A stretch of 37,199 nt of DNA from a virus. The stretch is from IMG/VR virus record IMGVR_UViG_3300045589_000097, positions 1 to 37,199 of that record. One strand, 5' to 3'. The translations under genes and the position numbers were made by a program. Positions within the stretch are counted from its first letter, which is position 1. Each line of letters opens with the position of its first letter. The notes under the pieces were generated by a model that was given only the letters and a program-made list of their open reading frames with translations, was not told where the DNA came from and did no database searches. Shown one piece after another: positions 35,099 through 37,199 of the stretch.

Positions 35099-36247
35099 TC
35101 ACACATAGTAAATGGCACGGGTATCATGATCGCTGTATTCGACCAGCTCAAACGTTTTGTGAGCAACCACGCCAATGTCATCAGTCCACTTGTCGGTTGG
35201 CTTGCGTGTCGACACTTGACGCTGAACAAATCCGCCTAGGTCTTTGCTCATCTCTGAATGCAGATGCCCCGTGAACAGCTCGCGATTCTGTGCTGTGCCT
35301 AACATGAAGCCGAACTCATCTAGGTATTTTGCAAGGTAGTTGTTCTTACCCTTGTCTCCGTGAGTGGCGCCAATGAAGTTATGGCCTAACATTGTGCCTT
35401 TGTAATGCTTCAGTGATATATCCCAAGTGATGTTCGACTGGTTGCTGTAGGCACGTTTCAATAGACGTGCAAACATATATCCAACTGACGGGTCGTGGTT
35501 ACCTGGCGCATACATGACCTCACACTCATTGGCGTTCTTAATGATTGCTTCAATCAGTGTCTCGAAGTATTGCTCCATTTCGTTCACAGTCTCGCCCAGA
35601 TCGGTTGTTTCGAGCTGTGTACCCTTTGCTGTGGTCGAGTTGATGTTATCCACATGAGCCAGATCACCGCCCAGAATGAGCAATATTTTGGCGTAGTGGC
35701 CGCGTTGAATGATCTCTAGTTGCCGTTTAAGCGATTCAGCATAGATGTCAAACGTGTGACCGTTGAAATGCGTGTCGAAAGCAGGAATGACCAGATAGCG
35801 ATCTGATTCCACAAAAATAGGAGCCTTAGCTTGGTATGGCTCCTTGTGTGTGATGATGTCATTCATCAATGATTCATATTGTTCCGCTTCAACTAACGGC
35901 CTGATTTGTATCTTGCTCTGGTACAACGTTGCTTCAGGCGTCTGCTTCCAGAAGTTGCTTGTGGCACGTACAAGTTCCCACTTAGTGTAATCATACCCGT
36001 GAGCTTCCAGAACCTCTCTAGGCGTCATTTTGTGGCCTCTGACAACCTTTAGAATGGTTTCACTGGACTGTGTACCGTCTGAATCGTATTCGTTCTTGAC
36101 TGGTTTTTGGAACTCGATGCCAAGCCGTTTTGCTTTGCCTTGAAGCGCGTCGTAGCTAATTCCTAGCTTGTCGGCCGTTTCTCGTCTAGTAAAGCCTTCA
36201 GAGGCGAGCTTCCTAATGTCACCGATCTGTTCATCTGTCCATTGCAT
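35099..36247 (-). CDS. N-terminal HTH fused to a calcineurin-like metallophosphoesterase (382 aa); first gene of the late operon
   Basis: HTH FTRRETADKLGISYDALQGKAKRLG. Phosphoesterase motifs DTHFNG, GGDLAH, GNHD, GATHGD, GHLH occur in canonical order. RBS GGAGG. Confidence 0.75.
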   Translation of the reverse strand: MQWTDEQIGDIRKLASEGFTRRETADKLGISYDALQGKAKRLGIEFQKPVKNEYDSDGTQSSETILKVVRGHKMTPREVLEAHGYDYTKWELVRATSNFWKQTPEATLYQSKIQIRPLVEAEQYESLMNDIITHKEPYQAKAPIFVESDRYLVIPAFDTHFNGHTFDIYAESLKRQLEIIQRGHYAKILLILGGDLAHVDNINSTTAKGTQLETTDLGETVNEMEQYFETLIEAIIKNANECEVMYAPGNHDPSVGYMFARLLKRAYSNQSNITWDISLKHYKGTMLGHNFIGATHGDKGKNNYLAKYLDEFGFMLGTAQNRELFTGHLHSEMSKDLGGFVQRQVSTRKPTDKWTDDIGVVAHKTFELVEYSDHDTRAIYYV

Positions 36248-36360
36248 CTACTCGCCTCCGAAAATATAATGTCCGTGAGCAGTTTGATGACGCTGCTCAC
36301 ATTCTCATGAAGAACTTCCCGAGTTCTTAAGCCCTCGGATTCGGCCCCGAGAGCTTTTTT
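36242..36360 (+). ncRNA. Candidate small-RNA unit B1
   Basis: TTGCAT 36242-36247, 17 nt, TATAAT 36265-36270. Hairpins GTGAGCAG 36275-36282 / CTGCTCAC 36293-36300 and AAGAACT 36310-36316 / AGTTCTT 36322-36328. Terminator 36331-36354 plus T6 at 36355-36360. Confidence 0.45.
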
Positions 36361-36361
36361 G

Positions 36362-36475
36362 TTGCTTAAAAAATTTCGATGAGTTAGAATTAAATTGTTC
36401 CCAACAGATACTCATTTTCACTCCTCTGTAATACCCTATCTTTAGGCTCTCGGCCCCCAACCGAGGGCTATTTTT
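36362..36475 (+). ncRNA. Candidate small-RNA unit B2
   Basis: TTGCTT 36362-36367, 17 nt, TAGAAT 36385-36390. Terminator GCTCTCGG 36446-36453 / CCGAGGGC 36461-36468, then TTTTT 36471-36475. Confidence 0.45.
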
Positions 36476-36611
36476 GTATCTTCTATAAGGAATGTGCTAA
36501 TATATATGCGTGAGTAGTGTCTTTTCTCCTCCAAGTCAACCGCTGCTGCTCACACAAGTATTTCGTTTTTTCATTCTTTTGGCTCTTGGACTGGTCTCTG
36601 AGGGCTTTTTT
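36474..36611 (+). ncRNA. Candidate small-RNA unit B3
   Basis: TTGTAT 36474-36479, 18 nt, TGcTAATAT 36495-36503. Stem GTGAGTAG 36510-36517 / CTGCTCAC 36546-36553 with CTCCTCC in the loop. Terminator 36582-36605 plus T6. Confidence 0.45.
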
Positions 36612-36612
36612 A

Positions 36613-36717
36613 TTCCGATTTATTGCTACATGTGTTATACTCTTTTTCGGTACCGTTGTTTCACCTCAGTAAACACCGGTAGCTAGGCCCTCAGTTAATC
36701 GCTCAGAGGGCCTTTTT
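36613..36717 (+). ncRNA. Candidate small-RNA unit B4
   Basis: TTCCGA 36613-36618 (weak), 17 nt, TGtTATACT 36633-36641. Stem 36651-36661 / 36671-36681. Terminator GGCCCTC 36686-36692 / GAGGGCC 36706-36712 plus TTTTT. Confidence 0.4.
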
Positions 36718-36724
36718 GTTGCAC

Positions 36725-36757
36725 AAAAATAGCACCTCACCGTTTGGCGGAGTGCTA
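36725..36757 (-). terminator. Minus-strand intrinsic terminator closing the arpU / tRNA-like unit, back to back with the B4 terminator
   Basis: The minus strand reads TAGCAC...GTGCTA (36757-36752 / 36735-36730) followed by TTTTT (36729-36725). Confidence 0.45.
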
Positions 36758-36799
36758 TAGTCTGGTGCCTACTCCTATGGTTTACCAGACTTGATCCAA

Positions 36800-36876
36800 T
36801 GCAACCGGCGGGATTTGAACCCGCGACACCGACGCACGCGCGAACTATAGTCGGTGAGCCTATCTCAATCGGTTGC
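36800..36876 (-). tRNA. tRNA-like element (77 nt) with an aberrant anticodon arm; possible pseudo-tRNA or intron-bearing tRNA
   Basis: Perfect 7-bp acceptor GCAACCG/CGGTTGC. D arm TGAG-ATAGG-CTCA. T arm GCGGG-TTCAAAT-CCCGC. The anticodon stem CCGAC/GTCGG encloses a 16-nt loop, so no anticodon can be assigned. Confidence 0.4.
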
Positions 36877-36939
36877 TGCTCGCTCTCCCAGTGTCAGATG
36901 GGGTCATCGCAAGATGTGTCCGGTCGCTAAACTGGACAA

Positions 36940-37004
36940 TGTGGCATGCGGGAATCGAACCCGCCTGACTATCTCAGCCAGTCCTCATTGCCACGCCTTG
37001 CCAC
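36940..37004 (-). ncRNA. Second, more degenerate tRNA-like module
   Basis: T arm GCGGG-TTCGATT-CCCGC. Acceptor ATGCCAC pairs with a duplicated GTGGCAA (A-A mismatch). D-arm-like CTGA-GATAG-TCAG abuts the T arm. No anticodon arm. Confidence 0.3.
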
Positions 37005-37106
37005 AGCTTTATCATCACTGAGGCTCGGAGGAAAAATGCGGTGTCTCAGGTTTCTCACCTTTGGCACAATACAATCATATGACGGAAAAGCGTGTTTTTT
37101 GTTGCA

Positions 37107-37199
37107 TCATTGTTGCACGGATGTTGCAACTAGTTTCACTAGCGGACATATTTCAGCAAAAGCATAGAGAGCTTCTTGTGTTTGTCGCCAAAGGGTCGT
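37107..37199 (-). CDS. arpU: ArpU-family regulator, 3' portion (37165-37199 duplicates 1-35)
   Basis: Same frame as 386->1 across the circular junction. Ends ...AFAEICPLVKLVATSVQQ with TGA at 37109-37107. Confidence 0.65.
   Translation of the reverse strand, partial: TTLWRQTQEALYAFAEICPLVKLVATSVQQ
37165..37199. repeat. Terminal direct repeat, identical to 1-35
   Basis: Exact 35-bp match to the start of the window. Confidence 0.9.

Follow-up and report, generated by a model that had tools for sequence, protein, structure and literature searches.

Small stable RNAs that decode nothing can be released by tRNA-type processing of a tRNA-like polycistron, as is the case for the stable RNAs C and D from the tRNA cluster of phage T4 and for the 3'ETS-leuZ spacer of E. 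coli. Late promoters of Gram-positive phages that depend on activators of the Ltr family (ArpU/RinA) were reportedly described by Quiles-Puchalt in 2013. To our knowledge, a conserved tRNA-like leader closed by a terminator is absent from the published description of these promoters. Plant-mitochondrial t-elements (Forner et al. 2007, PMC1920247) and mascRNA (MALAT1/MEN-beta) are non-canonical tRNA-like structures inside longer transcripts; their borders coincide with RNA ends, and the structures are read as signals for RNase Z and RNase P. In Lactobacillales phages, structured RNAs of the ROOL and GOLLD type are found among tRNAs in phage tRNA islands (Weinberg 2017, PMC5737381; RF03087). Small RNAs homologous to those described below are listed in Tables S2 and S8 of a small-RNA sequencing study of L. 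casei BL23 (Mickute et al. 2021, PMC8220740).

The locus analyzed here is closest in function to the t-elements and mascRNA (PMC1920247), and closest in place to the ROOL/GOLLD phage tRNA islands (PMC5737381), with which it shares the setting of structured RNAs in a Lactobacillales phage. In contrast to t-elements and mascRNA, with which they have no sequence homology, the tRNA-like structures belong to a phage late-operon leader, where several of them are strung around conserved small RNAs and element 1 remains attached to the leader on its 5' side. The locus also differs from the tRNA islands in that the window contains neither ROOL nor GOLLD, the elements are non-decoding, and their place behind an ArpU promoter is fixed. 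With the Ltr-family late promoters it has in common, in the window and in its relatives, the position between activator gene and packaging genes and the activator-specific repeat boxes. T4 RNAs C and D and 3'ETS-leuZ come from unrelated hosts and have unrelated sequences. The BL23 RNAs are the nearest relatives: their leader with element 1 is only a few bases off that of the window, with the same start, the same module B start and the same terminator. The BL23 prophages differ from the window in carrying cassettes other than its element 2, and the RNAs were listed as sRNA candidates derived from a 3' UTR or a 5' UTR, with no use of the term tRNA-like in the main text (PMC8220740). These RNAs had thus already been sequenced and were not recognized there as tRNA-like; the match between RNA ends and element borders is new here. 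Literature searches found no described phage tRNA-like late leader.

The window, which is the whole stretch of DNA analyzed (37,199 nt), is a complete 37.2-kb viral record with terminal repeats and represents a phage of the L. casei group (Lacticaseibacillus) with its genes on the minus strand. The C-terminal end of arpU was located at 37199-37107 and the first late gene, encoding an HTH-phosphoesterase, at 36247-35099, both on the minus strand, and the latter is followed by terS, terL and the portal gene. Both tRNA-like elements fall within the 860-nt gene-free gap between arpU and the first late gene. When the relatives were aligned, a fixed order was found, consisting of phage-specific direct repeats, an invariant promoter core, a block of approximately 190 nt, a variable slot and a terminator. 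The leader terminator is, in most relatives, directly followed by the first late gene, whose RBS and ATG come within approximately 15-25 nt. The window has an insert of four plus-strand small-RNA units between the leader terminator and the first late gene, and a gap of 7-8 bp separates the minus-strand terminator from the T-run of a plus-strand terminator, which ends at approximately 36717.

The promoter architecture looks like that of an activator-dependent late promoter. Three TGCAAC boxes (GTTGCA on the plus strand) with 11-bp spacing lie at 37101..37128, across the arpU stop codon, and their class match with ArpU makes them the probable ArpU operator. They are followed on the minus strand by the core promoter (37067..37079), in which direct reading revealed a -10 box TATGAT (37079..37074), a poor -35 region and, at 37067, a G as the inferred transcription start site (TSS). 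The core was identical in all relatives aligned. Upstream of it, seven classes of repeat box were found (TGCAAC, TGAGACC, TTGCGGA, TGGGAA, CGGACA, GCGAAC and T[AG]ATTGA), and across 134 loci these matched seven classes of ArpU C-terminus one-to-one, a pairing that provides a ready specificity table for the ArpU activator family. The activator-specific repeats, the weak -35 region and the location between activator gene and packaging genes are those of an ArpU/Ltr-dependent late promoter. Moreover, the BL23 RNAs sLCB574.1+ and sLCB1265.4+ both begin with the same GUGCCAAAGG, 7 nt past the -10 TATGAT. To the first-pass annotation the elements looked co-transcribed with arpU; simple co-transcription was not supported, as the unit has its own promoter past the arpU stop codon, the boxes of this promoter co-vary with the allele of ArpU, and the RNA 5' end published for BL23 follows TATGAT at the distance just given. 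Since a late promoter of the activator-dependent type lies behind arpU, the modules form the head of the late unit rather than a tail or 3' debris of arpU. The untranslated head of the ArpU-activated late transcription unit spans 37067..36725 (minus strand) and is a series of small structured RNAs with non-decoding tRNA-like modules between them. The earlier suggestion that the elements are embedded in a larger structured RNA was supported in this sense, both being part of the structured late leader.

The RNAalifold consensus places two hairpins in the 5' leader (36996..37067, minus strand), P1 at approximately 37067..37041 and P2 at 37028..36996. The P2 loop contains UGAUGAUAAAG, and P2 pairing is kept through C:G/U:G and A:U/G:U changes. 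Element 1 (36994..36940, minus strand) was recognized by direct reading, folding and conservation as a 55-nt tRNA-like three-way junction. Its 6-bp acceptor GTGGCA/TGCCAC encloses a 7-nt linker with a conserved GG, a single 5-bp hairpin with a 7-nt loop, and the T arm GCGGG-TTCGATT-CCCGC at 36964..36948; the discriminator A at 36940 is followed by TTG. Both the fold and direct reading show that it has no anticodon arm. Folded alone, element 1 adopted the three-way junction at -24.9 kcal/mol with a z score of -3.5. Two details of its first description needed correction: the supposed duplicated 5' acceptor strand is actually the 3' strand of the upstream hairpin GCCNNNG...CTGTGGC, and the D-arm core TGAGATAG thought to be shared with element 2 is not conserved, the loop of element 1 differing among phages with only GATAG constant. 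Covariation in element 1 was not significant among 100 copies, because its sequence hardly varies: 97% of positions were paired, only three pairs were doubly changed, and 80 of 500 shuffles did likewise.

Element 1 is directly followed by module B (36877..36939, minus strand), a 63-nt spacer RNA delimited by its near-invariance and made up of two hairpins. The second hairpin (36913..36879) has the sequence pattern of a kink-turn, with the C-stem GCUUGC/GCGAGC, a GAU bulge and tandem GA. This candidate kink-turn reads GCUUGC-GAU-GA-C-CCCA...UGGG-A-GA-GCGAGC, and a few variants break one G.A pair. Module B was nearly invariant in relatives and 95% identical in the unrelated virulent phage Lbab1. 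Downstream of element 2, a conserved trailer hairpin AGUCUGGU...ACCAGACU (36759..36791, minus strand) shows U:A/U:G variation in J-1, CL2, JNU_P9 and others. The leader unit is closed by an intrinsic terminator (36725..36757, minus strand) with a 12-bp stem containing one mismatch, an AAAC loop and UUUUU. The trailer hairpin together with the terminator (36757..36725) was very stable, with a z score of -3.8. In the leaders of the BH1 / R18.1 type (L086:8292-8794, L012, L002), the terminator hairpin stands between AUCACCUCAA upstream and UUGAGGUGAU downstream, the downstream copy being the RBS of the first late gene. Because AUCACCUCAA and UUGAGGUGAU flank the terminator in this way, the RBS could be sequestered within read-through transcripts of this type, or it could be a target in trans of the terminated RNA sLCB574.4+.

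Element 2 (36876..36800, minus strand) was delimited by direct reading and folding as a 77-nt tRNA-like cassette with a 7-bp acceptor GCAACCG/CGGTTGC and the T arm GCGGG-TTCAAAT-CCCGC at 36824..36808. Its interior consists of a short D-like hairpin and a 5-6-bp stem with a 16-nt loop, and the discriminator A at 36800 is followed by TTG (UUG trailer). Folded alone, it formed a cloverleaf with the 16-nt loop and a z score of -2.1. No antisense target of this loop was found in the window at up to 3 mismatches, or in two host genomes at up to 2 mismatches. This allele recurred in only two other contigs, L054 and L136, in other module contexts. By comparison of the slots, element 2 belongs, as one allele, to a family of cassettes in which acceptor, T arm and "N-UUG" trailer are fixed and the interior is very variable. 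The interiors measured 45-113 nt and were mutually unrelated, each type being itself conserved, and one type carried a compensatory stem change (T25 vs LJ). The acceptors were the same or compensated (GCAACCG/CGGTTGC, GCAACTG/CAGTTGC, ACAACTG/CAGTTGT, GAGGCCG/CGGCCTC, GAGGATG/CGTCCTC and GTGGCTG/CAGCCAC). All had the T arm, a discriminator A or G and mostly a TTG trailer, the latter being present in 22 of the 40 distinct tRNA-like contexts, and none had a normal anticodon loop. The slot was sometimes empty while element 1, module B and the terminator stayed. Among the temperate-phage leaders examined, the sole certain tRNA in the slot was the tRNA-Ile of PLE3 (71.8 bits). The commonest cassette in the slot, found right after module B in L005, L103, L060, L127 and approximately 17 other loci, has the look of a class II tRNA, with the acceptor ATCGCTG/CAGCGAT, a D arm GGCGGAATAGGTAGACGC, the T loop UGCAAAU and an abnormal anticodon region.

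Direct reading of the minus strand and the folds thus agreed with the first-pass annotation in that the two elements have textbook T arms and paired acceptors and that neither is a canonical tRNA. The acceptor is stacked on a T arm whose loop follows the consensus UUCRANY in both, and neither has a 7-nt anticodon loop or an assignable anticodon. Since neither has a usable anticodon arm, the elements are non-decoding and cannot read codons. ARAGORN at default settings found no tRNA in the window; under relaxed settings (intron, pseudogene, mitochondrial and tmRNA options) it made only low-score, conflicting calls, including Tyr(ata) with an 11-nt intron and Pro(agg), so that no normal tRNA with an assignable anticodon was returned. 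A permuted tmRNA call under these settings was spurious. When searched against Rfam 15, no family was found at gathering thresholds. At E<=10 with 4227 families, 36200-37199 gave partial matches driven by the T arm and none to tRNA, GOLLD, ROOL, HEARO or Y RNA, and the 29 bits of the tRNA model (RF00005) were accordingly not reached. The weak scores included tmRNA at 18.7 bits (threshold 47) and mascRNA at 17.9 bits (threshold 42.5), the latter over 36941-36994. With the tmRNA model (RF00023), only the acceptor and T arm align and the G3:U70 pair is missing, position 3:70 being G:C in element 1 and A:U in element 2; tmRNA was rejected, as was the bacterial Y RNA YrlA, given that no Y RNA was among the E<=10 matches. 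The proposed kinship with GOLLD or ROOL found no support either, as neither covariance model (RF01998 and RF03087, respectively) matched in the window. Neither GCAACCG nor GTGGCA occurs as an acceptor in the host tRNAs, and a search for a tRNA or tmRNA counterpart in the host found none, element 1 matching prophage copies only. A protein-coding reading was also rejected, in view of the differing frame and length of the ORFs annotated over the leader and the 1-3-nt indels inside the conserved block. GenBank records carry 'hypothetical proteins' of 147-330 nt over the leader (J1_56, A2 ORF51, iLP1308_48, phiAT3 ORF48 and LJ orf27), and on this evidence the leader ORFs of J-1, A2, iLp1308, phiAT3 and LJ are probably not genes.

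Absence from relatives had been named as evidence against the elements; they are instead widely conserved. Homologues of the leader region were found in 45 records of L. casei-group phages (A2, J-1, PL-1, Lc-Nu, Lrm1, phiAT3, CL1/2, iLp84/1308, PLE3, T25, BH1 and others) and, within IMG/VR, in at least 119 contigs, all likewise from phages of this group. Identity across these was 92-99%, both for element 1 itself and for the leader that includes element 1 and module B, and the block of approximately 190 nt formed by the two hairpins, element 1 and module B had a mean identity of 95%. Among 185,579 species genomes, the leader was found only in L. chiayiensis, in L. zeae and in one contig of a 'Prevotella' metagenome-assembled genome (MAG). 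That contig, CALNBT010000079.1 (L140), is binned with an uncultured Prevotella MAG, carries the Lacticaseibacillus phage leader and is probably a mis-binned phage contig.

RNA ends from the related BL23 prophages were then compared with the element borders; in these prophages the leader is 95-99% identical, and the data cover the homologues of element 1 and two other cassettes, other than element 2 of the window. Two RNAs from two prophages, sLCB574.1+ (127 nt) and sLCB1265.4+ (128 nt), begin with GUGCCAAAGG and end in ...UGCCACA (PMC8220740), so that they reach from the predicted TSS to the discriminator of element 1. In the prediction columns both are flagged 'promoter +, terminator -'; sLCB574.1+ was found in each of the three libraries, without deviation of its 5' or 3' end, and sLCB1265.4+ in library N only (PMC8220740). 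The 162-nt sLCB1265.7+ starts at the UUG just after the discriminator of the element-2-type cassette of PLE3 and ends one nucleotide before G+1 of the tRNA-Ile (PMC8220740). The 129-nt sLCB574.4+ (407-905 CPM) extends from the first U of the UUG of module B to the U-run of the terminator (PMC8220740), and its start lies 203 nt past the end of sLCB574.1+. In contig L086, module B and the terminator are identical to those of the sLCB574.4+ prophage, and the last part of the corresponding 203 nt is a mini tRNA-like element, ...CGGCCTC-A, with TTGTCCAG right behind it. Four junctions in the BL23 prophages therefore fall at tRNA-type borders to the nucleotide. These findings show that, as with t-elements, RNA ends lie in vivo at the borders of element 1 homologues and of two other cassettes. 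The leader plus element 1 RNA was modest in amount in uninduced cells (12-75 CPM), and the RNA starting at module B was approximately 10 times more abundant. The leader was also covered by RNA-library contigs, which show neither ends nor strand, and one metatranscriptome contig had a depth of 881 compared to 24 for the arpU contig.

We read the BL23 RNA ends as the outcome of processing of the RNase Z/P type. In L. zeae DSM 20178, no CCA is encoded in 51 of 54 tRNA gene contexts (from ARAGORN, which found 51 genes, a few listed twice), and U is the first nucleotide of most trailers; RNase Z together with the CCA-adding enzyme is therefore the normal route of tRNA 3' maturation. The 'N-UUG' trailer of the phage matches these U-starting trailers of the host. 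Among the options offered by the first-pass annotation, that of functional tRNA mimics or processing signals fits best, since in two BL23 prophages the RNA ends coincide exactly with the tRNA-like borders.

Taken together, the modules probably serve as handles by which the late leader is cut, in the manner of a tRNA precursor, into discrete stable RNAs. They appear to keep only the parts recognized by tRNA-end-processing enzymes, namely acceptor, T arm, discriminator and a trailer starting with U. Host RNase Z would cut past each discriminator, and RNase P would probably cut before modules with a free 5' side. By analogy with the BL23 prophages, the predicted products in the window are the leader plus element 1 of approximately 128 nt (37067..36940), module B of 63 nt (36939..36877), element 2 of 77 nt (36876..36800), and the trailer with the terminator. 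From these prophages and from host tRNA maturation we infer the cutting enzymes, the same cuts in the phage of the window, and the addition of CCA. Selection on the top half of the tRNA is suggested by the element 2 family, in which the acceptor is compensated and the interiors are wholly different. Ends of this kind at the foot of stable helices can also result from exonuclease trimming by RNase J1 or 3' exonucleases. The dominant element 1 RNA of BL23 retains its 5' leader, and RNase P therefore apparently does not cut there. Furthermore, the near-invariance over approximately 190 nt exceeds what a bare cutting signal needs, so that a further function is likely. An additional role of the released RNAs is suggested by the near-invariance of element 1 and module B and by the way element 2 varies as a cassette. 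Candidate roles are a decoy for a tRNA-binding host factor, an aid to read-through of the terminator, and protein binding by the putative kink-turn of module B. It is rather unlikely, though worth stating, that the top half of the tRNA provides phages of Lactobacillales with a natural scaffold for expression; exchangeable small-RNA cassettes would be excised by host RNase Z and RNase P, stabilized by the tRNA frame, and would then act in trans. The cassettes would be the interiors of the element 2 family and module B, and might, for example, regulate the late switch or serve as decoys for defence systems directed at tRNA.

The released RNAs could alternatively be non-decoding tRNA mimics that act in trans, occupying or misleading a tRNA-binding factor of the host, with processing as mere maturation. 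The factor could be a defence nuclease, an enzyme of modification or charging, or a toxin of the nucleotidyltransferase type that works on acceptor ends. We consider this mimic reading possible but on the doubtful side. It would account for an element 1 that is almost invariant among phages with mosaic flanks, for RNAs stable enough to be sequenced in BL23, and for the arms-race-like pattern of element 2, in which interiors are hypervariable yet conserved within types and one stem is compensated (T25 vs LJ); no partner protein is known, however, no host tRNA or tmRNA resembles the elements, and elements that have no anticodon loop could not be decoys for anticodon nucleases. That the leader acts in cis as an antiterminator of the put-/EAR type, or of the lambda 6S/tR' type, for read-through into the late genes is unlikely. 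In every relative, the promoter, the leader and an intrinsic terminator are followed directly by the RBS of the first late gene, and the late genes therefore need read-through; the leader is also invariant while terminator types differ, as expected for an action on the polymerase rather than on the terminator. Against antitermination, there is no Rfam match, no alternative pairing with the terminators was found, the leader occurs in pieces in BL23, and we know of no antiterminator RNA that is tRNA-like.

That the elements are decaying, functionless tRNA pseudogenes of the phage is very improbable. Related phages do have real or near-real tRNAs at this place (the PLE3 tRNA-Ile at 71.8 bits; elements of A2, Lrm1 and CL2 at 45-47 bits), but more than 160 sequences have element 1 at 92-99% identity, consensus T loops are kept, acceptor changes are compensated, and the RNAs accumulate with defined ends in BL23. 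The first-pass suggestion of decayed tRNAs thus sits poorly with a near-invariant element 1 and compensatory changes in the element 2 family. We give equally little credence to conservation at the DNA level, as a recombination linker or as an attachment site like the tRNA 3'-end copies in attP: the module junctions at shared ...CA-TTG boundaries and the mosaic region would suit it, but the region does not adjoin an integrase, no host tRNA or tmRNA has such a 3' end, and the BL23 homologues are transcribed and processed. Least probable of all is that the elements are part of a giant RNA of the GOLLD/ROOL class or of a small-protein gene as annotated in J-1, A2 and iLp1308. A ROOL RNA (201.5 bits) does lie directly upstream of homologous modules in Lbab1, and several records annotate ORFs of 147-330 nt over the leader; on the other side, the window gave no GOLLD or ROOL match even at E<=10, the annotated ORFs disagree in frame and length, and indels of 1-3 nt occur in the conserved block.

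The near absence of change in approximately 190 nt, across all known temperate L. casei-group siphophages and amid mosaic surroundings, points to strong selection on a leader that is in no RNA family database and for which genome records are blank or carry spurious ORFs. If the modules are indeed processing handles, they would bring to a bacteriophage late operon the tRNA punctuation otherwise known from organelles and MALAT1, and would explain the origin of the discrete prophage small RNAs sequenced in BL23. If the scaffold reading were true, the leader would parallel, in nature, the engineered polycistronic tRNA-guide arrays. In practical terms, the annotation of dairy and probiotic Lacticaseibacillus phages can be improved, with the late promoter and its operator classes defined. 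Because the same modules flank ROOL in Lbab1, the leader also offers a route towards the unexplained association of ROOL/GOLLD with tRNA islands.

In Lbab1 (L011:1647-2900), the only place where ROOL adjoined homologous modules, the ROOL RNA (201.5 bits) directly precedes an insert-bearing tRNA-like element of 107 nt, which is annotated as tRNA-Ser and scored 32.9 bits. The series then continues with a 155-nt module of Lrm1 and BH1, module B, and further modules common to CL2 and JNU_P10.
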